From: Vicinamibacteria bacterium
GTDB lineage: Bacteria > Acidobacteriota > Vicinamibacteria > Marinacidobacterales > Marinacidobacteraceae
Assembly: GCA_964291235.2 (NCBI GenBank)
Contig: OZ219815.1
Span: forward strand, 608,001 to 672,000
Direction of reading: 5' to 3'
DNA length: 64,000 nucleotides
The translations under genes and the position numbers were made by a program. The stretch's first letter is position 1, and each line of letters begins with the position of its first letter. Under the pieces are notes generated by a model that saw only the letters and a list, made by a program, of their open reading frames with translations, ran no database searches and was not told the DNA's origin. Shown here piece by piece: positions 6,051 to 58,313 of this stretch.

Positions 6051-7367
6051 TCAATTATGGGGTGACGACGCGAGGAGACGAATGAGTTCGGCCGGACTCA
6101 TGGCTTCGCGGATCGTCAGCAGGATTCTGGACAGGCGGTCGGACGGTGAGAGTTGGGGATCGATGAGGCCCTCGAGCGCGGCGCCGAAGCTTGGATCGGC
6201 AGCCGGGCGTACGAGAGCGTATCCGCCGAAGCGGTCGGCATGCGCGAGAAGGCCGTGAGGGTCCGGCACCAGGGCCTCGAAATCGAGCGCGCGCAGCGCC
6301 TCCAGGCGACTGAGCTCACCGTCCAGATACCCGGCGAGCACCCGCGACACCACGGGTTCCAGAGCCCGCAGCGACTCGTCCACGGGGGTCCCCGGCGCCA
6401 GCTCTTCGAGAGCCGCCGCCAACCCTTCGAAGACCGCGGTCCGGGGACCGTAAAGCGGCACGATCCCGAGTTCGGGCCACCCCCTGGTCTGGAATTCCCG
6501 ATCGGCGACCGCCGCCTGCAGGTGGTGGCCGGGGACCCCTTCGTGACAGGCCAGGCGCTGTAACTCCTTGGATCGCAGCCGAAGGCCCGCCGGGAGCCAC
6601 AGTGCCCCGCGTCCCTCCCCGGCATACCGGTAGAAAGGAGACGGCCCGGTGGGAAGCCTCGACGCCTCTGCAGGGGTTATCCAGTGGATTCCAAGCGGTT
6701 CCAGGCCGATGTCCACGGGCTCCGGGAACGCCAGTTCCCGGCAGCCGGCGAACGCCTCCCGCAGGCGGCCTTCGGTCCCTTCCCGAGGCGCGTCGGAGCG
6801 CTCGTAGTGACGGCGCACGCGTACCTTGAGGGGCGCGACTCCCTCGAGGGCGCGATCCACCCGGAAGTGAAGCCGCTCCAGGTCCACTTCGGGCTCGTTC
6901 CAGTCGAGACCGAAGACCTCACGAAGCTCTTCCGCCACCGGCCGCTGATCCCCGAGCAGTTTCCGGGCGCGAAACGCGAGCGCGCGGAGCGACGCCTCGA
7001 TGCGGCGCACCCGGAATTCTTCTTCGGTACGCGCCATCTGCCCCGCGCCGTCGGCAAGACGCCCGGCCCGCTCGGCAATTTCCCGGAGCTCGAGGTCCAG
7101 GGGCTCCAGAGGAGCGTCGAGGAACACCAGATCCAGGAACAGCGGATCGCGCTCGTGGAGCGCGAAAGCGAGTTCCACATACCGGCCGGCGAGCTCGTCG
7201 GCCGTCCTTGGGGCGGGATTCGCCGCCGGTGGTGGCGCGGGGCCGCAGGCGGCCCAGAGAATGAGAGCCACCGAGGCGAGCTGCGGGAGACGGAAAAGAG
7301 TGCGGAAGGCGCGGATTCGGGAAGCGTATGCGGGGTAAATCCCGGATGCAGCCGCCATCCCGGGCAT
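6051..7367 (-). CDS. Short DUF885-like lipoprotein with zincin-type HExxPGHH motif; start uncertain
   Basis: CHEGVPGHHLQ and downstream VFEGLA motif as in DUF885; lipobox WAA-C. Confidence 0.7.
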   Translation of the reverse strand: MPGMAAASGIYPAYASRIRAFRTLFRLPQLASVALILWAACGPAPPPAANPAPRTADELAGRYVELAFALHERDPLFLDLVFLDAPLEPLDLELREIAERAGRLADGAGQMARTEEEFRVRRIEASLRALAFRARKLLGDQRPVAEELREVFGLDWNEPEVDLERLHFRVDRALEGVAPLKVRVRRHYERSDAPREGTEGRLREAFAGCRELAFPEPVDIGLEPLGIHWITPAEASRLPTGPSPFYRYAGEGRGALWLPAGLRLRSKELQRLACHEGVPGHHLQAAVADREFQTRGWPELGIVPLYGPRTAVFEGLAAALEELAPGTPVDESLRALEPVVSRVLAGYLDGELSRLEALRALDFEALVPDPHGLLAHADRFGGYALVRPAADPSFGAALEGLIDPQLSPSDRLSRILLTIREAMSPAELIRLLASSPHN

Positions 7368-7460
7368 GACAGCCCGGCAGACAAGGCGGCGCTTCTTGGC
7401 GTGGCGATCCGCCGTCGTCGTTTGAGTTGACGTTGTCGGGGGTGACCAAGCTTGGGAGTC

Positions 7461-7681
7461 AGGAGCGCCGGCCTCCAGGCTGGCATCGCGGCCGCAGGTC
7501 GCGAAACTCCCATCGTCAACCGGCCAGGATGGCGCCGCAGCCCGGCAGTGTGGCGCTGCGCCACTCGCGCGCCCGTACGGCCACGCGCGGTCATCGCTTG
7601 GGTCGGTGTTGTGGACGCAGATTGAGTCTGGGAGTTTCGCTTCGCTATGCGAAGCGATGCCGGCCGGAGGCCGGCGCTCCT
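7461..7681. repeat. Inverted pair of REP-like palindromes (7461-7511 forward, 7630-7681 reverse)
   Basis: AGGAGCGCCGGCCTCC(A)GGCYGGCATCGC-hairpin-GCGAAACTCCC present in both orientations. Confidence 0.8.
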
Positions 7682-7705
7682 GGCACTCCTTGCACTCCTC
7701 GCCCT

Positions 7706-7734
7706 TTGACGGCCGCCGAGCCGGGGCATATCTT
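7706..7734 (+). promoter_or_regulatory. Sigma70-type promoter of M20 paralog 1
   Basis: TTGACG-17 bp-TATCTT, homologous to the promoters at 9736 and 41071. Confidence 0.7.
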
Positions 7735-7921
7735 CTAGCAGCCTGTGGAGGAAGTGACGCGAGCACCGAGAACGGGGAGGCGCCCGGCTGACAAGGCGCC
7801 CGAGGGAGGAATACCAGGTGTATTCCGACCGAAGGGCAACGATGAGGGTCGCGTAGCGACCCGGTTCAGCCGGGATGCATCGCCGTTCGAATGCCGCGTG
7901 ACTTTCTGCACAGGCTGCTCA
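7735..7921 (+). mobile_element. 187-bp MITE-like structured element, copy 1
   Basis: CTAG-CAGCCTGTG...CACAGGCTG-CTCA; aligns end to end with the reverse complements of the copies at 11512 and 14122. Confidence 0.85.
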
Positions 7922-7986
7922 AAGTGACCGCTCGCTAGGCGCGATGGTGCGGTCACGGCTCCGTTCGACTCAGGGAGGAGACTCTG

Positions 7987-9672
7987 ATGACCCGAAAAAC
8001 AACCCGATTCGGCCTGTTTTTGATCTTCGCCGCCGGGCTCGGCTTACTGGCCTGTGGAGCGCCCGAGACGGAGGACCGGACCGCCCCCGGCGCCGAGACG
8101 CTCGGCGTCCGGGCCGACGGCGACACCCAGATCTCCCCCGACCTGTCGCGGATTCCCGAGGAACTGCAGCAAGTGTTCCGCCACATCGACGACAACGTGG
8201 ATCGCCAGCACGTGATGAACCTGAGGCGCTGGATCCAGCAGCCGAGCATCTCGAACTCGGGCGAGGGAATCCCCGAGTCGGCCCAGATGGTCAAGGGGTT
8301 CTTCGATCAGCTCGGTTGCCAGCATTCCCAGGTGTACGAGATCCCCATGACCGAGTGGGGGCAGCCGGGCAATCCGGTGGTGTACGCGAACTGCAACTAC
8401 GGCGCCGAGCGCACCCTGCTCATCTACTGGATGTACGACACGATGCCGATCACCCAGCCCGAGGCCTGGGTGCTCCCGCCGTTCGACGGGGAGTTCACCG
8501 AGTTCGGCCCCTTCAAGAAGGTGATGATCGGCCGCGGCGCGACCAACTCCAAGGGTCCGCAGATGGTCCAGTGGAACGCCTTCCACTCGATCTACGAGGA
8601 AACCGGCACCATGCCGGTGAACCTGATCTTCATCGCCGAGGGCGACGAGGAGCGGATGTCCATCGGCCTCCGCCAGTTCGTCCGCGAAAACCCGGATCTG
8701 TTCCGCGAGGCGGAGGCGATGTACCGCTTCGGGCGGCAGTCACGCTCCGGCGCCGCGGGCATCGGGGGCGGTTCGGAAGGCTGCGTTTACATCGAACTCA
8801 CCACCAGCGGAGCGAGCTGGGGACGGGGCCCGGTGGCCTCCAACATCCACGGATCCAGAAAACGCTCCGTGGACGCCCCGGCGCTCCGCCACGTGAAGAT
8901 GCTCTCGTCACTGGTAACCGATGACGGGAACGGGGTGTTGGTTCCCGGGTTCTACGACGGCGCCGACCCGCTGAACGACGCGGAGGAAGCGATGTTCCAA
9001 AACGCCGCCGAGAACATCGACCTGGCGGTCGCCGCCGAGAACATCGGGGTGGCCCGCTTCATCAGCGACGATCCGCTGACCTACCTGAAGAGCGCGCGCT
9101 ACGGCATTTCCTTCAACATGGACGGCGTCTGGGCCGGCAACATGTATCCGGGCGGCGCCGGCGCCATTCTGCCGAACCGCATTACCTCCAAGCACAACAT
9201 GCGCTACGTCCCCAGCATGGACGGGCTGGAGATGGTCCAGAAGATCCGGGACTACCTGGATGAGCAGGGCTACGAGGACGTCGAGATGACGATCATCGGG
9301 GACGTCCCGTGGTCGAAGTCCAGCTACGACAACCGGGCGGCGCACTCCCTGCTGCACACCTATGACATTTTCGGGATCCCCTACCGGGACCCGATCGAAG
9401 GGGAGAGCATCCTCGGCGGTTACTGGCCCGCCTATCTCTTCAGCGGCCGGGACGGGGATTTCGCCGACGGCACCGACCTCTCGATGCCGATCGTGGGCGG
9501 CGCCGGCGGCCACGGAGGCGGCTCCCACGCGGCCAACGAGTTCTGGGTGATCGAGGGCGCCGGCAACGTCTATGGGATGGCCGGCGGCGAGAAGACGGTG
9601 GCGACCTTCCTCTACGCCTACGCGGGGCTGCTCCCCGATGCCCCGGCCGAGACCGGGATGGACGAGGAATAG
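7987..9672 (+). CDS. M20/M25/M40-family metallohydrolase lipoprotein, paralog 1
   Basis: Lipobox LLA-C; QPSIS, YWMYDTMP, GRGATNSKGP, EGDEE and HAANE motifs; GGAGG RBS. Confidence 0.88.
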   Translation: MTRKTTRFGLFLIFAAGLGLLACGAPETEDRTAPGAETLGVRADGDTQISPDLSRIPEELQQVFRHIDDNVDRQHVMNLRRWIQQPSISNSGEGIPESAQMVKGFFDQLGCQHSQVYEIPMTEWGQPGNPVVYANCNYGAERTLLIYWMYDTMPITQPEAWVLPPFDGEFTEFGPFKKVMIGRGATNSKGPQMVQWNAFHSIYEETGTMPVNLIFIAEGDEERMSIGLRQFVRENPDLFREAEAMYRFGRQSRSGAAGIGGGSEGCVYIELTTSGASWGRGPVASNIHGSRKRSVDAPALRHVKMLSSLVTDDGNGVLVPGFYDGADPLNDAEEAMFQNAAENIDLAVAAENIGVARFISDDPLTYLKSARYGISFNMDGVWAGNMYPGGAGAILPNRITSKHNMRYVPSMDGLEMVQKIRDYLDEQGYEDVEMTIIGDVPWSKSSYDNRAAHSLLHTYDIFGIPYRDPIEGESILGGYWPAYLFSGRDGDFADGTDLSMPIVGGAGGHGGGSHAANEFWVIEGAGNVYGMAGGEKTVATFLYAYAGLLPDAPAETGMDEE

Positions 9673-9735
9673 CAATCCGAAAGCGTTCCGCTCCGGCGTG
9701 GTCGCGTCCGCGCCGCGGGCGGCGCACCTCGCCCT

Positions 9736-9765
9736 TTGACAGGCCGGCCGGAAGGGACATATCTT
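9736..9765 (+). promoter_or_regulatory. Sigma70-type promoter of M20 paralog 2
   Basis: TTGACA-18 bp-TATCTT. Confidence 0.7.
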
Positions 9766-9832
9766 CCAGAGTTGGCCGTCCCCCGGAGTGAGGTGCGGCC
9801 GCTGCTCGGTCCCACCCACGAAGGAGATTTTG

Positions 9833-11515
9833 ATGACGCGAAACGCAACCCGATTCGGCCTGTTCCTGCTGCTCGTTTGCGGGCTCGGCTGGCTCGCCTG
9901 CGGAGCCCCCGAAATGGAGGACCGGATGGCGCCCGCCACCGAGACACTCGGCGTGCGCGCCGCGGGCGACACGGAAATTGCACCCGACATGTCGCAGATC
10001 CCCGAGGAACTCCAGCAGGTGTTCGGGCACATCGACGACAACATCGATGAGCACGTGATGAATCTCCGTCGCTGGATCCAGCAGCCGAGCATCTCGAACT
10101 CGGGCGAGGGAATCCCCGAATCAGCCCAGATGGTCAAGGGGTTCTTCGACCAGCTCGGCTGTCAGCAATCGCAGGTGTACGAGATTCCCATGACCGAATG
10201 GGGGCAGCCCGGCAACCCGGTCGTGTATGCGAACTGCGACTACGGCAAGGAGCACACGATCCTCATCTACTGGATGTACGACACGATGCCGATCACCCAG
10301 CCCGAGGCCTGGGTGCTCCCGCCGTTCGACGGGGAGTTCACCGAGTTCGGCCCCTTCAAGAAGGTGATGATCGGCCGCGGCGCGACCAACTCCAAGGGTC
10401 CGCAGATGGTCCAGTGGAACGCCTTCCACTCCATCTACGAGGAGACCGGATCCATGCCGGTCAACCTGATCTTCATCGCCGAGGGTGACGAGGAGCGGAT
10501 GTCCATCGGCCTCCGGCAGTTCGTCCGCGAAAATCCGGAACTCTTCGCCGAGGCGGACGCGATGTATCGCTTCGGTTCCCAGTCGCGCTCCGGGGCCGCC
10601 GGCATCGGCGGCGGATCGGAAGGCTGCGTTTACATCGAACTCACCACCAGCGGAGCGAGCTGGGGACGGGGCCCGGTGGCCTCCAACATTCATGGGGCAC
10701 ACAAGCGCTCCACCGACGCCCCGGCGCTCCGCCACGTAAAAATGCTCTCTTCCCTGGTTACCGAGGACGGGAACGGGGTGTTGATTCCCGGGTTCTACGA
10801 CGGCGCCGACCCGCTGAACGACGCCGAGGAGGCGATGTTCCAAAACGCCGCCGAGAACATCGACATGGCCGTTGCCGCCGAGAACATCGGAGTGGCCCGC
10901 TTCATCAGCGACGATCCGCTGACCTACCTGAAGAGCGCGCGCTACGGCATTTCCTTCAACATGGACGGCGTCTGGGCCGGCAACATGTATCCCGGCGGCG
11001 CCGGCGCGATCCTGCCGAACCGGATTACCTCCAAGCACAACATGCGCTACGTCCCCAGCATGGACGGGCTGGACATGGTCCAGAAGATCCGGGACTACCT
11101 GGATGAGCAAGGCTACGAGGACGTCGAAATGACGATCATCGGAGACGTCCCGTGGTCGAAGTCCAGCTACGACAACCGGGCGGCGCATTCGCTGCTCCGC
11201 ACCTACGACGTCTTCGGCATCCGCTACCGCGATCCCCTCGAGGGCGAATCCATACTGGGCGGTTACTGGCCGGCATACCTGTTCAGCGGCAGGGACGGGG
11301 ACTTCGCCGACGGCACCGACCTCTCGATGCCGATCGTCGGCGGGGCGGCCGGACACGGCGGCGGCGCCCACGCGGCCAACGAGTTCTGGGTCATTGAGGG
11401 CGCCGGCGAGGTCTATGGGATGGCCGGGGCCGAGAAGTCGATCGCTACTTTCCTCTACGCCTATGCCGGACTGCTACCCGATGCCCCGGCCGAGACAGGG
11501 ATGGACGAGGACTAG
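9833..11515 (+). CDS. M20/M25/M40-family metallohydrolase lipoprotein, paralog 2 (tandem duplicate)
   Basis: Nearly identical to 7987-9672; AAGGAG RBS before ATG 9833; lipobox WLA-C. Confidence 0.88.
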   Translation: MTRNATRFGLFLLLVCGLGWLACGAPEMEDRMAPATETLGVRAAGDTEIAPDMSQIPEELQQVFGHIDDNIDEHVMNLRRWIQQPSISNSGEGIPESAQMVKGFFDQLGCQQSQVYEIPMTEWGQPGNPVVYANCDYGKEHTILIYWMYDTMPITQPEAWVLPPFDGEFTEFGPFKKVMIGRGATNSKGPQMVQWNAFHSIYEETGSMPVNLIFIAEGDEERMSIGLRQFVRENPELFAEADAMYRFGSQSRSGAAGIGGGSEGCVYIELTTSGASWGRGPVASNIHGAHKRSTDAPALRHVKMLSSLVTEDGNGVLIPGFYDGADPLNDAEEAMFQNAAENIDMAVAAENIGVARFISDDPLTYLKSARYGISFNMDGVWAGNMYPGGAGAILPNRITSKHNMRYVPSMDGLDMVQKIRDYLDEQGYEDVEMTIIGDVPWSKSSYDNRAAHSLLRTYDVFGIRYRDPLEGESILGGYWPAYLFSGRDGDFADGTDLSMPIVGGAAGHGGGAHAANEFWVIEGAGEVYGMAGAEKSIATFLYAYAGLLPDAPAETGMDED

Positions 11516-11698
11516 CAGCCCGTGGCAAAACCCACGCGGCGTTCGACGAGCGATGCATCCCGTCTGAACCGTGCCGCTTCGCGGCGCTCGGCGTTGCGCT
11601 TCGGTCGAAATACACCCGGTATTCCTCCCTCGCGCGCCTTCTCAGCCGGGCGCCTCGCCCGTCTCGGCGCTCACGCGGGTTTCACCACGGGCTGCTAG
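11512..11698 (-). mobile_element. 187-bp MITE-like structured element, copy 2
   Basis: CTAG-CAGCCCGTGG...CCACGGGCTG-CTAG; the left CTAG contains the M20 stop codon. Confidence 0.85.
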
Positions 11699-11808
11699 CA
11701 ACCGGAAATTGAGCAGCGCTCTGGTTCGTCCCGGGGACCCGGCTTCCGGAGGGGAGCCGGGTCCGACGTTTGGGGCGCGCCCCTGACCCCTGAAAGGCCA
11801 CGAGACCC

Positions 11809-12546
11809 ATGCCGGAGGAATCGCCTCCCACCGCAATTGAAGTTCGGGATCTCGTCAAGACGTACGTCCTGAGCGAGACCCATCGGGTGGAGGCCCTCCG
11901 TGGACTCACCCTGTCGGTGGACAAGGGGGAGTTCCTGTCGGTCCTCGGCCCGTCCGGATCCGGCAAGAGCACCCTGATGCACATCATCGGCTGTCTCGAC
12001 CAGCCGACCTCCGGGGAATACCACCTCATGGGACGCGACATCTCCCGCCTCGGGAACGACGAGCGCGCCCGCATCCGGAACGAGGAGATCGGGTTCGTCT
12101 TCCAGAGCTTCCACCTGCTCGCCCGGGCCAGCGCCCTCGAGAACGTGGAACTTCCCATGCTCTACGGGGCCAAGCGGCCGGGACGCGAAGAAAGACGCCG
12201 GAAGGCGTCCGAAGCGTTGGCGGCCGTGGGCCTCTCCGACCGGGCGACCCACGCCCCGAGCCAGCTCTCCGGAGGCCAGCAGCAGCGGGTTGCCATCGCC
12301 CGGGCCCTCGCCAACCGGCCGCGCCTCCTGCTGGCGGACGAACCGACCGGCAATCTGGACACCCGGACCGGACGGGAAATCCTCGACACCTTCGCCCGGC
12401 TCAACTCGGAACGAGGACTGACCGTGATCATGATCACCCACGACCGGCAGGTGGCGCAGTATGCCTCCCGAAGCGTTGAGCTGCGGGACGGACGAATCCT
12501 CACCGACGAAGGAATATCGAGCAATGGAGCAGACCCCGGTGCCTGA
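11809..12546 (+). CDS. ABC transporter ATP-binding protein (MacB/LolD type)
   Basis: GPSGSGKST, LSGGQQQRV, LLADEPTGNLD, ITHD. Confidence 0.95.
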   Translation: MPEESPPTAIEVRDLVKTYVLSETHRVEALRGLTLSVDKGEFLSVLGPSGSGKSTLMHIIGCLDQPTSGEYHLMGRDISRLGNDERARIRNEEIGFVFQSFHLLARASALENVELPMLYGAKRPGREERRRKASEALAAVGLSDRATHAPSQLSGGQQQRVAIARALANRPRLLLADEPTGNLDTRTGREILDTFARLNSERGLTVIMITHDRQVAQYASRSVELRDGRILTDEGISSNGADPGA

Positions 12547-14074
12547 TCCCAAAAACGGAGCACGTTTCCAGCGCCTGTTACGCGAGTTGCCCGCCGAACG
12601 GCGCACGGCGCTCGAAACCGCCGTCCAGAGCCTGCGGCGCTACCCGCTCCGGACCACGCTGACCCTGCTCGGCCTCGCGTTCGGGGTGGCGGCCCTGATG
12701 GCGACGATCGCCCTCGGTCGCGGTGCCCAGGGTGCGATCCAGGATCAGGTGCGCGCCGCCGGTCTCAACGTGATCGAGGTGACGGCCGGCAACTATCGGA
12801 CCCGCGGAGAGCGGCCCATCGGGGGCATCGAGGCGCCCGCCCGGCATGGGGCGGCCCTCCCTCCTGGCGTGCTGGAGCGCTTCCTGAGGAAGATCGAGCC
12901 GGTGGCTCTGGCGCATCCCGAGAACGATCCGATGGAAAAACACGATCATCCGACGGCCGCGGATCGGCTCGGAGATTCGGCAGCCGGTCTCGGCGCGGCG
13001 GCGACGCTGACCAGCGACGACGCCGACGCGATCGCATCGCTACCCGGTGTCGCCCATGTCGCATCAGGCATCCACGAGAGCGTCCGCATCTTCGCCGGTG
13101 ACCGACGCTGGTTCACACGGCTTCACGGCACCGACGTGGACCTCGTGCAGATCCGCCGGTCGTTCGCGATGCAGCACGGACGGTTCTTCAGTGCCGGAGA
13201 ACTGAGGCGCTCCTCCCAGGTGGTGGTGCTCGGCAGCGTCGCGCGGGACCAGCTCTTCGGCCAGGGCGAGGACCCGGTCGGCCGCGAGGTCAGCATCTGG
13301 AACCAGTCGTTCGAGGTGGTCGGCGTCGTGGTGAGCAGCAACTGGATGAATCCCGGCGCTCCCGGCGACGATGAATTCGACGCGGTGTACACACCCTTTA
13401 CCGCCGTCCATCGGCTGCTCAACGCCACGAACCTCAACTCCATCACCGTGACCGCGGCGTCGTCCGGACGGGTCACCGAGGTGTCCCGGGACATCACCGA
13501 TCTGCTCCGCGAGCGGCACGGAATCGGGGAAACCCAGGCTGACGATTTCACGGTGACGACCCAAGCGTCGGAGGTGCTCGGCAAGGGCCTTCATCCGAAG
13601 GTGGCCGAAACCCTCGCCGGCAACATCCCGAATCTCGAACGCACCACCCTGCGACAGCTCGCCGCGACCCTCGAACGTTCCAGCAGCACCATGTCGGCGC
13701 TGCTGCTCGCCATCGCGCTCGTCTCGTTGATCGTGGGCGCGATCGGGATTTCGAACGTCATGCTGCTCTCGGTGCGCGAACGGATCCGCGAAATCGGGCT
13801 GCGAATGGCGGTCGGAGCGCAGACCGGGGATGTCGGCAACCAGTTCCTCACCGAGTCCGTGCTGCTCGGCGCCGCCGGGGGGGTGCTGGGCGTCGTGATC
13901 GGCGCGGTGGCCGCGGTGGTAGTCGAGAGTTCGTTCGGATTGGCGGTCGAGGTTTCGGCAGTGGCCGGCCTGATCTCGTTCCTGGTGGCGCTCCTCACCG
14001 GAGTGATCGCCGGGGTCAGTCCGGCGCGGCGAGCCGCCCGTCTCGACCCGATCGTCGCCCTCGGTTCGGAATAG
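12524..14074 (+). CDS. MacB/FtsX-family ABC permease with a His-containing periplasmic insertion
   Basis: LRTTLTLLGLAFGVAAL; NVMLLSVRERIREIGLRMAVGA; RLDPIVAL; insert HPENDPMEKHDHP; overlaps the ATPase stop. Confidence 0.9.
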   Translation: MEQTPVPDPKNGARFQRLLRELPAERRTALETAVQSLRRYPLRTTLTLLGLAFGVAALMATIALGRGAQGAIQDQVRAAGLNVIEVTAGNYRTRGERPIGGIEAPARHGAALPPGVLERFLRKIEPVALAHPENDPMEKHDHPTAADRLGDSAAGLGAAATLTSDDADAIASLPGVAHVASGIHESVRIFAGDRRWFTRLHGTDVDLVQIRRSFAMQHGRFFSAGELRRSSQVVVLGSVARDQLFGQGEDPVGREVSIWNQSFEVVGVVVSSNWMNPGAPGDDEFDAVYTPFTAVHRLLNATNLNSITVTAASSGRVTEVSRDITDLLRERHGIGETQADDFTVTTQASEVLGKGLHPKVAETLAGNIPNLERTTLRQLAATLERSSSTMSALLLAIALVSLIVGAIGISNVMLLSVRERIREIGLRMAVGAQTGDVGNQFLTESVLLGAAGGVLGVVIGAVAAVVVESSFGLAVEVSAVAGLISFLVALLTGVIAGVSPARRAARLDPIVALGSE

Positions 14075-14121
14075 GAATCCGCCGGCCGGCGAGCGGCGGC
14101 AGGTTCAGTCGGGCAGCGGGA

Positions 14122-14308
14122 TTAACAGCCTGTGGACAAAGTCACGCGGCATTCGAACAGCGATGCATCCCGGCTGAACCGGGCCGCTGCGCGACCCTCA
14201 TCGTTGCGTTTCGGTCGGAATACACTCGGTATTCCTTCCTCACGCGCCTTGTCAGCCGGGCGCCTCACTGTTCTCGGTGCTCACGTCACTTTATCCACAG
14301 GCTGTTAA
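14122..14308 (-). mobile_element. 187-bp MITE-like structured element, copy 3
   Basis: TTAA-CAGCCTGTGGA...TCCACAGGCTG-TTAA. Confidence 0.85.
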
Positions 14309-14495
14309 CGGAGCGGTCAGGCCGGACGGATCCGCCTGAGCGAAGACCCGCTCCAGCCGCCACTGAATCCAGATTCCATCGCCGCCGCCCGAGAGGAGAA
14401 AGAACAGCAAGAAGCCGGCGGCGATCGCCGCATCAGGAAACCGGCGGACCCGCTCTTTGATCACCCGGTCTGTGCGGGGCTACCGGTATCGCTTC

Positions 14496-16694
14496 TCAGC
14501 GCTCCTGTTCCTGACGCGGCGGCGCGCCGCGCTCGGCTTCGCTGACCCGGGTCAGGGCTTCCTCGACCTGCGGCTGTTCCGCGTCGAGCGTCAAAGAGCG
14601 CTCGAACGCCTCCCGGGCTCCGGCAAAGTCGGAAACCTGAAACCGGGCGAGCCCCAGCAGGTTGAGGCTCTGCGTGTCCGGGTTCTCGAGCAGGATGGCG
14701 CGGGCCAGCAGGTCTTCGGCGTCCTCGTAGCGGCCCAAATGGAAATACGCCTCCCCGAGGACCCGAAGCAGGTCGTAGCGGTCCTGGACTTCCGCATAGA
14801 CCGGCTCCAGCAGTTCCACCACCGTCGCCGGGTTGCCCGCTTCGATTTCGAGCCCCGCCAGGAGCTCGCGGGCGCGTCCGAGGCGAGGCGCCATCGCCAC
14901 GGCTTGCTCGATCACCGGGCGAGCCTCCTCCGTCCGTTCCAGCGCCATGAGCTGTTCGCCCAGCGCCAGGCTCGTGAAGCCCGGGTTCTCCGGTCCGAAG
15001 GGCAGCATGTTGCCGTGAAAACCTGCCTCGAGCAGATTTCCGCGGGGAGATACCGTGAACGGCGCGCGGCGTGAAGACATCACGCCCCCGGCCCGGTCGA
15101 GCAGGTCCGCCTGGATCTCGTAGCGCCCCGCTCCGATGTCCAGCAGGGAAAAATCGAGCGCCACAAATCCGCTCGCCGCATCCGGCTCCGCTGGCTCGTC
15201 GCTCGTGTACGCCACCTCGCCATCGGTCAGCGGTTCGCGGCTCACGATCCGGAAGCGGACCGACGCTTCCTCGGGCGCGTGCTGGGGCACCACTCCGGCG
15301 ACAAAGTTGTCGCCGATGGCGTAAACCCCCTGCGGGTTGGGCACTACGCCGGCAAGGCCGATTCGAAAGGGGCGATAGCGCGCCGGAGCCGCTTCGATCC
15401 GCCTCCCGAGCACCAGGTCGCTGAGTCGTGCGGTTCCGTCGCGCGGTGGCACGCTGACGTCGGTCTCGATCAGGGTGTAGCTCTTCGCGCAGTCTTCCTC
15501 TTCCCGCGAGGCGCACGCCCGGTTCCGGAGCACGATGCGCACGGTGTGATCCCCCGGGATCAGCGGCAGGACACCGGCCCAGGAGAACGGGCGCTGCAGG
15601 GTGCCGCGCGCCTCTTCGTCCGTCAGGGAAACGAAGGACTCCCTCCGGAATTCGGTGACGATCTGCTCGGGGTCGTCGCGCAAGACAGCTTCGACGGACC
15701 CAATGAACGCGGTGTCATAGCTGCCGCGATCCTCGTTGCGGATGAAGGCGGTGTACTGGGCGTCCACCTGGACCACCCAATGCAGGAAGGAGGCGTCTTC
15801 AGGCCCCGGAAGAACCGCTACCGCACCGTGTCCGGGGACGTAGGTGAACAGGTAGTCGGCCTCGATCGCGCCCCGTTCGAAGTCGAGCCGGTCCGCATAG
15901 CTGTCGTCGAGGCCGCGGAACGGCACCTCGTGGATATCTCCCAGCAGGTCCAGCGAGCCGAAGGGCACGGCCTGGAACCGGGTGATGTCCTGCTCGTCGG
16001 TGCGGAAGGACATGGCCGCGTTCGCGATCTCGGGGTCGAATTCGTAGAGGACTTCGTACGCGCGTTCCATCTCGTCGCGAAAATCCCGGCGCTCGGGCTG
16101 ATAGCCGGTCAGGAGCGCCGCGGGGCCGTCCGAAATGGGGTCGTAGAGCTGTAGTTCCCCGACTCCGTGCCGTCTCCAGAAGAGGAGATAGAAGAACGCC
16201 GGAAGTCCGAAACGCTTCAGCTCCGAGTTGTTGAAGAACCAGAGTTCGGTCGGGTAGATCTCATCCCGAGCTTCGAAATTCTGGATCGATCGGGGCGCCC
16301 CGAGCAGGATGTAGTAGCGGCCGCGGTCCGTCTGCCAACCCTCGCGGAAGGTGGAGCGCCCGAACCACTTGTTCACGTAGTCGAACCGCTCGTAGTGCTC
16401 GATCCTGAACTCGTTCTCGGGGGTCGAGGGGTTGTGGTCGCGCTTCCGCCAGAAAGCATCCACGAACGACTCGCGCTGTTGCTCGGAGGTCAGCGTCAGG
16501 AACACCCGCTTCTCGCGATCGGTGATGAGATAGACGACCTCCTCGGTCAGCCAGACTTGGTAGTGCTCCGGAAGGGCCGCGATCTTCTCTTTCTCGCTCA
16601 ATTCCTCCTGCGCCGCGCCCGACGCGGTGATTCCGGCTACGAGGATCGCGGCAAGAACCAGAATGGAGGGGAGACGCCGTACTGTTGGAGCCAT
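14496..16694 (-). CDS. GWxTD domain protein with C-terminal TPRs
   Basis: Signal peptide; WLTEEVVYLITDRE, FWRKRD and GWQTDRGRYYILLG motifs; TPR-like C-terminus. Confidence 0.9.
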   Translation of the reverse strand: MAPTVRRLPSILVLAAILVAGITASGAAQEELSEKEKIAALPEHYQVWLTEEVVYLITDREKRVFLTLTSEQQRESFVDAFWRKRDHNPSTPENEFRIEHYERFDYVNKWFGRSTFREGWQTDRGRYYILLGAPRSIQNFEARDEIYPTELWFFNNSELKRFGLPAFFYLLFWRRHGVGELQLYDPISDGPAALLTGYQPERRDFRDEMERAYEVLYEFDPEIANAAMSFRTDEQDITRFQAVPFGSLDLLGDIHEVPFRGLDDSYADRLDFERGAIEADYLFTYVPGHGAVAVLPGPEDASFLHWVVQVDAQYTAFIRNEDRGSYDTAFIGSVEAVLRDDPEQIVTEFRRESFVSLTDEEARGTLQRPFSWAGVLPLIPGDHTVRIVLRNRACASREEEDCAKSYTLIETDVSVPPRDGTARLSDLVLGRRIEAAPARYRPFRIGLAGVVPNPQGVYAIGDNFVAGVVPQHAPEEASVRFRIVSREPLTDGEVAYTSDEPAEPDAASGFVALDFSLLDIGAGRYEIQADLLDRAGGVMSSRRAPFTVSPRGNLLEAGFHGNMLPFGPENPGFTSLALGEQLMALERTEEARPVIEQAVAMAPRLGRARELLAGLEIEAGNPATVVELLEPVYAEVQDRYDLLRVLGEAYFHLGRYEDAEDLLARAILLENPDTQSLNLLGLARFQVSDFAGAREAFERSLTLDAEQPQVEEALTRVSEAERGAPPRQEQER

Positions 16695-39982: not shown

Positions 39983-40053
39983 CTAGCAGCCTGTAGCTAA
40001 AGTGACGTGAGCATCGAGAACTGGGCCGCCTGACTTTACTCACAGGCTGCTAA
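39983..40053 (+). mobile_element. Internally deleted 71-bp copy of the 187-bp element
   Basis: CTAG-CAGCCTGT..AAAGTGACGTGAGCATCGAGAAC...TGACTTT..CACAGGCTG-CTAA matches both ends of copies 1 and 3. Confidence 0.8.
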
Positions 40054-41159: not shown

Positions 41160-42827
41160 ATGGCGATGCGCAACCGGAGAGTCTGGACCCTGCTCCCGCT
41201 ACTGCTGGCGGGGCTCTTGCTGGCTGCCTGCGGCGGCGGCCCGGACATGGACGCGGAACCCGCCCCGACCGCGGCGGAGCTCGGGATCCGGCCTCAGGGG
41301 GACACGACGCTCAGTCCGGACATGTCCCGCGTCCCCGAGGAACTCCAGCAGGTGTTCCAGCACATCGACGACAACGCGGACCGGCACGTGATGAACCTCC
41401 GCCGCTGGATCCAGCAGCCGAGCATCTCCAACTCCGGCGAGGGGATCCCCGAGTCGGCCCAGATGGTGAAGGGTTTCTTCGACCAGCTCGGCTGCCAGCA
41501 TTCGCAGGTGTACGAGGTTCCGATGACCGAGTGGGGCCAGCCGGGCAATCCGGTCGTGTACGCGGACTGCGACTACGGCAAGGAAGACACCCTGCTCGTT
41601 TACTGGATGTACGACACGATGCCGATCACCCAGCCGGAGGCCTGGGTATTCCCGCCGTTCGACGGCGAGTTCACCGAGTTCGGCCCCTTCAAGAAGGTGA
41701 TGATCGGCCGCGGCACCACGAACTCGAAAGGGCCCCAGATGACCATGTGGAACGGGATGCACTCGATCTACGAGGTCACGGGATCCATGCCGGTGAACCT
41801 GATCTTCATCGCGGAAGGCGACGAAGAGCGGATGTCCATCGGCCTCCGCCAGTTTGTGCGGGAGAACCCCGAACTCTTCGCCCACGCTGACGCCATGTAC
41901 CGGACGGGGCGTCAGGCGCGGAGCGGAGCGGCCGGCTTCTCCGGCGGCTCCGAGGGTTGCGTTTACATCGAGTTGACCACCAGCGGCGAGAGTTGGGGCC
42001 GCGGGCCGTTGGCATCGAACATCCACGGCATCCACAAGCGTTCGACGGATGCCCCGCTGCTCCGCCACATCAAGATGCTGGACACCCTCATTACCGACGA
42101 CGGGAACGGGGTTCTGGTGCCGGGCTTTTACGACGGCGCGGTGCCGCTGTCACCGGCGGAAGAAGAAATGTTCCGCACCTCGGCGGAGAACCTCGATCTC
42201 GCGATTGCCGCAGAGAACATCGGCGTGGCCCGGTTCATGACGGACGACCCGCTCCAGCACTTGATGAACGCCCGCTACGGCATCTCCTTCAACATGGACG
42301 GCATCTGGTCCGGAAACATGTATCCGGGCGGAGCCGGCGCAATCCTGCCGAACCGGGTCACCTCCAAGCACAACATGCGCTACGTGCCCAACATGGACGG
42401 ACTCGAGATGGTTCAGAAGATCCGCGACTATCTCGACGCGCAGGGCTACGAGGACGTCGAAATGACGATCGTCGGGGACGTGCCCTGGTCGAAGAGCAAC
42501 TACAACAACCCGCTCGCCGACTCGGTCCGGGAGATGCTCTCCATCTTCGGGGTCCGCTACCGCGATCCGATCGCGGAGGACTCCATCCTCGGCGGCGGCT
42601 ACTGGCCGGCCTATCTGTTCAGCGGCCGGGACGGCACCCTGCCGGGCGGGACGGACCTGGCGATGCCGATCGTGGGCGGGGGTGTCGGACACGGCGGCGG
42701 CGCCCATGCCGCCAACGAGTTCTGGGTGATCGAGGGAGCCGGCGAAGTCTACGGAATGTTGGGCGGGGAAAAGTCGGTGGCGACCGTGCTCTACTCCTAC
42801 GCCGGATTGCTGGGCGATTCGAACTGA
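41160..42827 (+). CDS. M20/M25/M40-family metallohydrolase lipoprotein, paralog 3
   Basis: AAGGAG RBS; lipobox LAA-C; YWMYDTMP, GRGTTNSKGP, EGDEE, HAANE. Confidence 0.88.
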   Translation: MAMRNRRVWTLLPLLLAGLLLAACGGGPDMDAEPAPTAAELGIRPQGDTTLSPDMSRVPEELQQVFQHIDDNADRHVMNLRRWIQQPSISNSGEGIPESAQMVKGFFDQLGCQHSQVYEVPMTEWGQPGNPVVYADCDYGKEDTLLVYWMYDTMPITQPEAWVFPPFDGEFTEFGPFKKVMIGRGTTNSKGPQMTMWNGMHSIYEVTGSMPVNLIFIAEGDEERMSIGLRQFVRENPELFAHADAMYRTGRQARSGAAGFSGGSEGCVYIELTTSGESWGRGPLASNIHGIHKRSTDAPLLRHIKMLDTLITDDGNGVLVPGFYDGAVPLSPAEEEMFRTSAENLDLAIAAENIGVARFMTDDPLQHLMNARYGISFNMDGIWSGNMYPGGAGAILPNRVTSKHNMRYVPNMDGLEMVQKIRDYLDAQGYEDVEMTIVGDVPWSKSNYNNPLADSVREMLSIFGVRYRDPIAEDSILGGGYWPAYLFSGRDGTLPGGTDLAMPIVGGGVGHGGGAHAANEFWVIEGAGEVYGMLGGEKSVATVLYSYAGLLGDSN

Positions 42828-42863
42828 CACCGAGCTCGCCTCCCGGAAACCAGGCGGCCCTCC

Positions 42864-42892
42864 TTGACATGGGGGGCCGCGGGGACTAGCGT
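42864..42892 (+). promoter_or_regulatory. Putative rpsU promoter
   Basis: TTGACA-17 bp-TAGCGT. Confidence 0.55.
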
Positions 42893-42973
42893 TCTCGCTT
42901 CCCCTTGGACCGCTCTCGGTCCGGGGTTTCTCATTTTTCACCAGAGCACGAGCGGAATCACACAGAGGATCTC

Positions 42974-44979: not shown

Positions 44980-44998
44980 GAAGCGCGGGGGACCGCCT

Positions 44999-45046
44999 GG
45001 AGCAACGGCCTCCGGCCGGCATCGCTCGCCCGAGGCGAGCGAAACG
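44999..45046 (+). repeat. REP-like palindrome, same family as 7461
   Basis: GGAGCAACGGCCTCCGGCCGGCATCGCTCGCC-CGA-GGCGAGCGAAAC. Confidence 0.7.
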
Positions 45047-45074
45047 CACAGCAGCGTCCGGAGAATTGAAGAAA

Positions 45075-57950: not shown

Positions 57951-58300
57951 GGAACAGGTTGGAGAGTTTCGCCTCGCTTTGCTCGGCGATGCCAGCCGGA
58001 GACTGGCGCTCCTACCCCTGGTGACGGCGCCCCAGGCCCAAACGGGGACGGCGTAACGCCCCTGTGCCCTCCTCCCTGCAGCACCGCCGCCCTCCACCCC
58101 CACGGCGCGCGACAGCGGAGCGCCGGCCTCCGGCCGGCATCGCGGCCAAAGGCCGCGAAACTCACCCACCTCGTCCGCCGCACCGCACCCATCCAAACGG
58201 GGACGGCGCATCGTCACACTCCACAAATGCGGAGCGGAACAGGTTGGAGAGTTTCGCCTCGCTTTGCTCGGCGATGCCAGCCAGAGGCTGGCGCTCCTAC
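57951..58300. repeat. BIME/REPIN-like cluster of three REPs in alternating orientation
   Basis: Direct repeats 57951-58013 and 58236-58298 begin GTAGGAGCGCCAG on the minus strand; opposite-orientation copy at 58117-58163; repeated linker CCAAACGGGGACGGCG. Confidence 0.85.
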
Positions 58301-58313
58301 TCCCAGCGGGTCG

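Follow-up and report, generated by a model that had tools for sequence, protein, structure and literature searches.

A miniature inverted-repeat element of Vicinamibacteria tied to an IS5/IS1182-like insertion sequence, with an interior fold that appears to be selected on one strand

The 64,000-nt stretch of DNA analysed here (hereafter the window) corresponds to positions 608,001-672,000 of contig OZ219815.1 in assembly GCA_964291235.2, a Vicinamibacteria metagenome-assembled genome (MAG) of 3.45 Mb in two contigs, with 68% G+C and 90% completeness. This genome is labelled G000 below, and the window is G000:C1:608001-672000. The subject of this report is a dispersed repeat of 187 bp, of which the window carries three full copies (Table 1). 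Each copy consists of a 179-nt non-coding core element with the ends CAGCCYGTGG...CCACRGGCTG and a 4-nt flank on either side, and variation within the family mainly takes the form of compensatory pairs and is not codon-like. A first-pass annotation, made by a model from the letters of the window, had placed these copies, their ends and their flanks exactly. The three copies align without gaps at a mean column identity of 88%, and a pairwise repeat search of the window returned them as inverted or direct pairs of 182-185 nt that are 81-90% alike. Copy 1 sits upstream of an M20-peptidase gene (7987-9672), and its predicted fold has a free energy of -114 kcal/mol (z = -11.0; 0/200 shuffles as good), compared with -97 kcal/mol for its reverse complement. 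Three paralogous M20-family peptidase genes occur in the window (7987-9672, 9788-11515 and about 41300-42900; DNA 76-92% alike), two of which are arranged in tandem, and copies 1 and 2 bracket this tandem pair.

We are confident that the 187-bp repeat is a transposable element of the miniature inverted-repeat kind (MITE) tied to a 1516-bp insertion sequence (IS). The partner IS was found by scanning fetched loci for long intervals between element ends. It occupies L009:183-1698 in G001, where it reads CAGCCTGTGGTGAAAC...CCACCACAGGCTG between two TTAA flanks, and it carries an open reading frame (ORF) of 484 aa at L009:248-1702 that extends through the right end, with its stop codon in the duplicated flanking TAA. 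The encoded transposase exceeds the Pfam cut-offs for DUF772 (60 bits) and DDE_Tnp_1 (42 bits). In NCBIfam its best model is IS1182 (149 bits, cut-off 270), and it also matches IS5_4 (76 bits, cut-off 140); it is probably a diverged member of the IS5/IS1182-like group. The left end of the IS, CAGCCTGTGGTGAAAC, is identical to the MITE consensus over 16 of 16 terminal nucleotides, beyond which the two sequences are unrelated. Among the congeners, G001 carries 14 full copies of the IS with 100% identical protein, and diverged copies are found in G009 (82% protein identity), in G008 and G004 (65%) and in G018 (56%). The related ISs in G009, G008 and G004 share the first 10 nt, and those in G018 and G019 differ at one of these ten positions. 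The same 4-mer stands on both sides of 10 of the 12 IS copies examined, four times as a non-palindromic direct repeat (ATAG, TTAG, TTAC and CTAA), which indicates that the enzyme duplicates 4 bp (NTAN). CTAG/CTAG (31) and TTAA/TTAA (30) flanks are found among 231 MITE copies. The link to IS5-type DDE elements that the first-pass annotation had drawn from the flanks, together with its suggestion that transposase genes with the same ends be sought, is therefore borne out by an autonomous IS of congeners that combines DUF772 and DDE_Tnp_1 with the same termini and 4-bp NTAN duplications.

The element is abundant in G000 and widespread among its relatives. Two rounds of nhmmer gave 82 non-overlapping matches in G000; 62 of these are close to full length, and for 60 the ends could be refined. 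It is present in 15/15 congeners and in 33/41 relatives, tallies in which the unpublished genome G033 makes up one row and on which no claim depends through that genome. First-look candidates per congener range from 26 to 564; the four congeners with the most (G001, G004, G008 and G013; 336-564) include three that carry the partner IS, a slight hint of mobilisation in trans, and none was found in G013 with the query used. A pattern scan of public genomes yielded at least 117 stretches, and the titles among the matches listed were all of Acidobacteria, Vicinamibacteria or ‘Candidatus Marinacidobacterium’ MAGs. Viral contigs gave no match to the core pattern. G000 itself gave no match to DDE_3, DUF4096, DDE_Tnp_1, DDE_Tnp_1_2, DUF772 or the IS protein, an absence that is unproven in a genome that is 90% complete, and the pairs of element ends that lie 350-6000 bp apart in G000 enclose ordinary genes, with no partner IS among them.

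Presence and absence at orthologous sites is clearest for copy 3, which is missing from 11/11 orthologous congener stretches (within 700 bp of the gene end). In G013 and G004, where the downstream gene is kept, the site reads GGGA-TGAG-CGGGG, and in G000 it reads GGGA-TTAA-[MITE]-TTAA-CGGAG. An empty site of the kind that had been proposed as a check on the 4-bp duplication is thus seen for copy 3. The repeat is short, non-coding and dispersed, has its termini in common with an autonomous IS and varies in presence at orthologous sites. This anatomy, the shared termini and the empty site speak for a MITE and against the undescribed class of non-autonomous element that had initially been suggested.

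An IS630-type element with TA duplication was favoured at first, since non-palindromic flanks in G000 were inverted (five cases) and never clean YTAR direct repeats. It was dropped because the IS with matching ends gives direct 4-bp repeats and because the three kinds of DDE_3 element examined have other ends (TACATAGCGCC, GTGCCGCGTC and GTGTGGCGTCCC). DDE_3 (IS630-type) elements occur in 6/15 congeners and not in G000. In congeners, such elements are inserted at TA dinucleotides flanking the MITE, and one lies inside its central A/T-rich hairpin (L118:1405-2534, L135 and L137:1372-2517, L133:1366-2585), so that the MITE creates preferred targets for other elements.

The interior of the element preserves a fold while its letters change. 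In 76 distinct 179-nt copies, 95.7% of the cells in paired columns are paired, and 35 of the 69 pairs change on both sides (290 cells). None of 500 shuffles reaches any of the five measures used, a control that overstates independence because the copies are related by descent, and sliding the partners by 1-3 columns leaves 9-16 compensatory pairs. All of the stems in which the first-pass annotation had noted compensatory changes among the three window copies are included in the 35 compensatory pairs of this larger sample. In the outer stem, the two variants (GGTGAAAC... and GGATAAAGTGAC...) mirror the ends found in two subfamilies of the IS, those of G001/G009 and of G008/G004; covariation in the inner helices is not explicable by IS-subfamily ends.

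The side hairpin proved to be a feature of more limited range. The loop GCG-N-AGC, described at the outset as conserved, is present in all three window copies, but across the family the heptamer varies: 78 of 96 distinct copies have a G-N-A loop, 11 have AAA and 7 have something else. The loop is always closed by C-G, and covariation is seen at the pair that follows (GCGNAGC, TCGNAGA, CCGAAGG). The whole side hairpin is missing from distant relatives and is found only in the family that holds the window, so that the d(GCGNAGC) mini-hairpin is not a conserved key feature of the element but a lineage-specific extra arm that relatives of ~160 nt lack. Rfam 15 gave no match at gathering scores over the whole window, and none at E-values up to 10 over 7700-7960; the comparison with Rfam that had been suggested thus returned no covariance-model match, and hence no described RNA family.

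The fold is also asymmetric between the strands, which we regard as the decisive observation. The strand of copy 1 has the lower minimum free energy in 96/96 distinct copies (mean -111.5 versus -90.7 kcal/mol), and of the cells in paired columns 548 are G-U and 20 are A-C. Variant pair types that occur in more than two copies comprise 19 of G-U and none of A-C (binomial p = 4e-6), whereas rare types, seen in one or two copies, comprise 26 of G-U and 18 of A-C (binomial p = 0.29). Since rare types are of both kinds and common types are G-U only, both mutations appear to arise, and only those that keep a wobble pair on the copy-1 strand spread. Mutational bias does not account for this asymmetry, as unpaired positions show C>T at one site and G>A at 11, with no excess of C>T on the forward strand. 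Orientation does not account for it either: the forward strand lies on the leading strand in 33 copies and on the lagging strand in 31, and copies between co-directional neighbouring genes are antisense in 20 cases and sense in 11 (p = 0.15, with a crude gene caller), which is random with respect to both replication and neighbours. We therefore regard a strand-specific, single-stranded fold under selection as highly likely. That the interior fold is selected as a single strand had been proposed from the window copies, and it gains support here from covariation, strand-specific tolerance of G-U and the slow divergence of an orthologous copy.

The orthologous copy in question is copy 1, which is found at the same locus in G008 and G001, with a core identical to that of G000 at 170/179 positions (95.0%) in each. 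The adjacent peptidase gene is 83.7% (G008) and 82.2% (G001) identical at codon position 3, and 94-97% at codon positions 1 and 2; the spacer between copy 1 and the gene is 80% identical. Copy 1 thus has too few differences (p about 3e-6 for G008 and 3e-7 for G001). The nine differences between G000 and G008 include a pair that changed in a compensated way from U-A to C-G (111/121), three changes that create or remove a wobble, two changes at unpaired positions and two sites at which G000 alone is mismatched, and the G001 set departs from the G008 set at two positions. This locus, compared with two related genomes, argues that resident copies may be constrained even in a genome in which no transposase was detected.

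A part of the interior extends well beyond the genus. In other families of the order, the first matches were weak and confined to the interior, and a core of ~110 nt was subsequently found between at least four unrelated kinds of ends (types A to D, Table 1). The ends of types B and C were not found in the 12 IS loci compared. When 40 cores are aligned, the same helices are recovered, with 30 predicted pairs, of which 15 carry compensated changes, and with an invariant G-U next to a bulged A; this alignment and its fold were used to build a covariance model, R1. With R1, the core was detected in 82/151 genomes sampled from the class, representing 15/19 families, and reached its highest counts in G118 (135) and G046 (130); the search of the class gave over 1,000 matches, with several hundred cores among them. 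In a sample of 151 genomes from the phylum it was detected in 17, and it is multi-copy in three families outside the class. In 51 distinct deep cores, 94.3% of the cells are paired and 32/44 pairs are compensatory, a level that 0/500 shuffles attain, and slid partners give 8-11 such pairs. The G-U pair persists in 50/51 of them, G-U cells outnumber A-C cells by 102 to 14, and the single-stranded stretches of the core are conserved. As judged from these alignments, the core is wider and older than the MITE of the genus.

Table 1. Positions of the MITE copies and their parts in the window, example insert sites elsewhere in G000, and the kinds of ends found around the core
Feature	Position	Strand	Remarks
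MITE copy 1	7735..7921	+	Better-folding orientation; flank CTAG 7735-7738, core 7739-7917, flank CTCA 7918-7921
Left terminal inverted repeat region, copy 1	7739..7758	+	First 16 nt of the family consensus equal the IS left end
Structured core, copy 1	7762..7895	+	Element positions 24-157; part common to elements with other termini
Side hairpin, copy 1	7846..7862	+	C(GNA)G triloop, GGGTCGC-GTA-GCGACCC; lineage-specific, missing from ~160-nt relatives
Right terminal inverted repeat region, copy 1	7898..7917	+	From ends and alignment
MITE copy 2	11512..11698	-	Flanks CTAG/CTAG; the M20-peptidase paralogue 9788-11515 has its stop codon in the TAG of the CTAG flank; next comes an ABC-transporter ATPase gene
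MITE copy 3	14122..14308	-	Flanks TTAA/TTAA; between convergent genes; site empty in the congeners examined
Internally deleted copy	39983..40053	+	Both ends present, 63-nt core, flanks CTAG/CTAA; overlooked in the first-pass annotation
Example 18-nt insert sites (G000)	C2:725444-725664, C1:1002231-1002433, C2:635332-635570		The only copy in the window is degenerate and lies near 172-189
Type A ends			CAGCCYGTGG...; this genus, and a ~160-nt form without the GNA hairpin in families f6, f9, f14, f19 and f61 (another class)
Type B ends			CTAG followed by TGTCYCGTCTCGGAAGTG...; G032, G040 and G027, with a similar end in G046
Type C ends			CTAG followed by TGCCGTGGTCCATAAATAGTGCCC...; G026 and G040
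Type D ends			AGTACTCTGATCCGTAAATACGG...; G046

A second and much smaller unit is nested within the MITE. The lengths of MITE cores cluster at 179, 197, 215, 233, 251 and 269 nt, in steps of 18 nt that arise because the unit CCAGTTCTCCCGGTGGGG is inserted as discrete blocks. These inserts occur in either orientation, sometimes in tandem, at about ten positions of the MITE alignment, some of which lie within 1-2 nt of each other. Among the 60 G000 copies with refined ends, 29 carry at least one 18-nt mini-insert, and truncated copies also occur. G000 contains 194 matches to the unit with up to three mismatches (83 exact), of which 68 lie inside MITEs and 126 elsewhere, and many of the latter interrupt the loop of another family of hairpins, which is REP-like. 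The left flank of the unit is usually GGC, and the right flank starts with G and is usually GC. Exact copies number 83 in G000, 564 in G001, 631 in G004, 525 in G008, 1288 in G013, 220 in G018 and 6 in G009; none was found in 16 genomes of the sister families f2 and f3, and a reversed control gave none in any genome. A further nested insertion, hairpin-like and ~90 nt long, is present at element position 150 in four pooled copies, two of them in G000 (C2:1807640-1807951 and C2:1054340-1054668).

The window also contains a second dispersed family, built around a GCCGGCC-GGAG-GCCGGC hairpin (7619-7686, 57951-58018 and 58236-58303, and inverted at 44990-45051). G000 encodes a single Y1_Tnp (HUH) gene at C1:16598-16834 (L224:1501-1737), which scores 33 bits, over the cut-off. 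Tandem repeats of ~130 nt stand on both sides of this gene in the layout of a REP-associated tyrosine transposase (RAYT), and the repeat is similar to the GCCGGCC-GGAG-GCCGGC family, so that these repeats and the Y1_Tnp gene look like a REP/RAYT system. The 3.2-kb locus contains no MITE end, and no 18-mer lies within 1.5 kb of the gene. The HUH gene that the first-pass annotation had suggested looking for is therefore present in G000, but it is not bounded by MITE ends. A REPIN or REP moved by a RAYT was rejected as an identity for the 187-bp element, which has no GTAG/CGTC tag, the Y1_Tnp gene being flanked by a different repeat. An IS200/IS605-type element was rejected as well, as terminal inverted repeats and flanking repeats are present and the leading and lagging strands are occupied almost equally (33 versus 31).

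Other observations concern the arrangement of the copies and their assembly. In some relatives the MITE forms head-to-tail tandem arrays with a period of 183-185 bp, in which neighbours share one CTAG (L003:5647-6040, L030:7496-7879 and L170:1318-1687). Contigs from four DNA runs of one study break at repeats over window positions 7000-15000. One contig in each of two runs joins 11517 to 11724 via 18 other letters, with 30 letters on the shorter side; this join may represent a co-occurring strain that lacks MITE copy 2, and we judged it too weak to use.

The reading that we favour, and consider rather probable as a whole, is that of a trans-mobilised MITE whose folded interior is a module selected on one strand and acting as RNA. 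Its terminal inverted repeats of ~20 bp would be recognised in trans by the DDE transposase of the 1.5-kb IS5/IS1182-like IS, which would insert, duplicating 4 bp, at NTAN targets that are mostly CTAG or TTAA. G000 would have lost this transposase, leaving its 82 matches (62 near full length) stranded. The interior module of ~110-135 nt is not derived from the IS and is predicted to form a branched rod, composed of a long helix with the invariant G-U and the bulged A, a four-pair helix, and an A/U-rich hairpin with a YGGGM loop, to which the extra GNA-triloop hairpin would have been added in the lineage of the window only. This fold would be kept on one strand, during the multiplication of variants as well as in one or more resident copies. 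The selected molecule could be the transcript of the element, a structured cis-acting or protein-binding RNA that raises its retention or spread; that this molecule is RNA is a proposal towards which the balance of probability leans slightly, on the pattern of substitutions.

Several observations weigh against this reading. The case for RNA draws on wobble tolerance, and G-T pairs in single-stranded DNA (ssDNA) would give the same pattern; the C(GNA)G triloop, moreover, is better known in DNA than in RNA. Because the element shows no orientation preference relative to neighbouring genes, a cis role in read-through would need a promoter of its own, and no convincing -35/-10 (sigma-70-like) promoter was recognised in the core by eye, where a conserved ATG opens no conserved frame. 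The covariation at positions 11-20 may reflect the cognate ends of the IS subfamilies, and hence transposase recognition, rather than folding. The transposase scores below the NCBIfam cut-offs for both IS1182 and IS5. Among the 231 MITE copies with scored flanks, the non-palindromic cases comprise 13 inverted and 7 direct repeats. Flank bases that face each other across the element are complementary in 116/132 copies at the inner position (G-T 12, A-C 2) and in 79/132 at the outer one. A plain 4-bp duplication does not predict this complementarity of the inner flank, which suggests a pairing constraint, or a DNA-level correction, that reaches into the flanks. The constraint on copy 1 in place was seen at a single locus, compared with two related genomes, and could also be a product of gene conversion between copies. 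Common descent also affects the controls, both in the shuffles of the 76 copies and in the 51-core alignment, whose related sequences were fitted to the model's own structure.

A broader proposal, which we regard as possible but doubtful, takes the ~110-nt core itself as the unit of selection. The core would be a self-promoting single-stranded module, either a catalytic or protein-binding RNA or a folded DNA strand, that has repeatedly been joined to unrelated transposase ends and has spread through the phylum. With the 18-nt insert included, there would be three nested mobile levels, of which the mechanism is known for the outermost only.

It is unlikely, in our estimation, that the selected molecule is ssDNA, with one strand copied or excised as a folded hairpin, by replication or by an HUH-type enzyme, and the fold joining the two ends into one recognised duplex. 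Selection at a copying step would fit the asymmetry among multiplied variants (19 G-U to 0 A-C for common types, 26 to 18 for rare ones), and the lack of orientation bias relative to neighbouring transcription, the Y1 transposase of G000 and a pairing constraint that seemingly extends into the flanking 4-mers would also agree with it. So would the C(GNA)G triloop of 78/96 copies, which is a very stable DNA hairpin motif, although this hairpin is absent from most of the family. The Y1 gene, however, is accompanied by REP-like arrays of another kind, with neither MITE ends nor an 18-mer within 1.5 kb, and no element was found to share the termini other than one with a DDE transposase that generates 4-bp duplications. 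Such duplications mark double-strand cut-and-paste or copy-and-paste transposition, and HUH enzymes leave none. The near-equal use of leading and lagging strands is unlike that of IS200/IS605-type elements, and selection at the copying step does not explain the conservation of a long-resident copy in a genome without the transposase.

Quite improbable is the view that the core represents a trans-acting or host-serving non-coding RNA (ncRNA) gene family that rides in MITEs, with the host keeping useful copies. This idea corresponds to the ‘domesticated ncRNA’ of the first-pass annotation, and it is strengthened by the maintenance of the core with four kinds of termini and in 15/19 of the families sampled. 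It also agrees with the divergence of copy 1, which is 95.0% identical between species, against 82-84% at synonymous sites and 80% in the spacer, with the G-U and bulged A of 50/51 deep cores and the conserved single-stranded stretches, and with the persistence of 82 matches, 62 near full length, in G000 without the transposase. Against these points, copy number varies many-fold among congeners (first-look counts of 26 to 564), copies come and go at orthologous sites, deleted or interrupted copies are common (29/60 with mini-inserts, besides truncations), and there is no fixed genomic context. Such variable number, turnover, interruption and lack of context are typical of selfish repeats and not of a needed host gene, and no Rfam family matches.

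That there is no single-strand selection at all, and that template switching in quasi-palindromes or gene conversion produces the ‘compensatory’ changes at the DNA level, is very improbable: long imperfect palindromes are hot spots of templated mutation, pairing that extends into the duplicated flanks would follow naturally and conversion can homogenise multi-copy families, but these processes are strand-blind, and the strand asymmetry (548 to 20 forward G-T versus A-C cells, 19 to 0 common types, better folding in 96/96 copies) nearly excludes them, as unpaired positions have no matching mutational bias, orientation to replication is random, and bulges, internal loops and the invariant G-U have been kept over phylum-scale divergence and not ‘perfected’.

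The reading of a trans-mobilised MITE with a strand-selected interior has consequences for how such repeats are viewed. MITEs are usually seen as transposase-binding ends around junk, and here the interior is the conserved part. If the selected molecule is RNA, Acidobacteriota would hold a large family of structured RNAs that is not yet catalogued and for which a deep alignment is ready; if it is ssDNA, the element would be mobilised by a DDE transposase with a strand-specific step beyond current models of IS5-type transposition. In practical terms, these repeats, like the 18-nt insert, interrupt the assembly of short reads from sponge-associated Acidobacteria, and the elements overlap stop codons, of which annotation pipelines should take account.

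We found no description of this family in the literature. A prokaryotic MITE census (2024, PMC11602168), in its accessible part, names Acidobacteria only for phage MITEs, and its supplements may list the element. The closest described relative in kind is the Bacillus cereus group repeat bcr1 (Klevan et al., 2007; summary in Delihas, 2011, PMC3184786), a dispersed, non-coding and transcribed repeat of ~155 bp with short direct-repeat flanks and 5-bp duplications, which is patchy among related strains and has a branched fold kept by compensatory changes at the RNA level. The likeness lies in size, dispersal and a compensatory branched fold. Relative to that account of bcr1, the MITE described here has a partner IS with the same termini, a strand-specific fold and a core that occurs between unrelated termini, and it is known from sequence alone. 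To our knowledge, no partner IS has been identified for bcr1.

Correia/NEMIS elements of Neisseria and ERIC elements of enterobacteria are MITE-like as well. They are whole-length imperfect palindromes of 100-160 bp that form long hairpins in transcripts, occupy TA-containing sites, often beside stop codons, in hundreds of copies with duplication of the TA, and give RNA hairpins that act on host mRNAs in either orientation. In the present case, by comparison, the partner IS duplicates 4 bp, the fold is kept on one strand only, and there is no sequence in common. The partner IS resembles other ISs of the IS5/IS1182 type in its DUF772 and DDE_Tnp_1 domains, its length of about 1.5 kb and its short terminal inverted repeats, and a 4-bp duplication of a YTAR-like target is typical of the IS5 group. 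The 187-bp element shares only about 16-20 nt per end with its IS, and its interior is no deletion remnant of that IS.

As for the nested unit, the small dispersed repeats (SDR) of heterocystous cyanobacteria, said to have been described by Elhai and co-workers in 2008, reportedly measure ~20 nt, occur in hundreds to thousands of copies and are inserted inside other repeats, including MITEs. The 18-nt insert is like SDR in being a tiny nested block, but it belongs to another phylum and has no sequence relation to them; we know of nothing else like it outside these cyanobacterial repeats. REPINs and REPs moved by RAYT (Y1/HUH) enzymes are also hairpin repeats, and their copying, according to published accounts (PMC3116915; PMC3733652), depends on one folded DNA strand. 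Compared with REPINs as described there, the 187-bp element has the terminal inverted repeats of a DDE IS and target duplications, and it lacks the GTAG/CGTC tag. Taken together, these comparisons identify a MITE of a known general kind, alongside bcr1, ERIC and Correia-like elements, with an unusually informative interior. New here are the identification of its partner IS along with the 4-bp duplication, a site that is empty in congeners, the slow divergence of one orthologous copy, the finding that the core stands between four kinds of ends and is spread across the phylum, and the insert of 18 nt.

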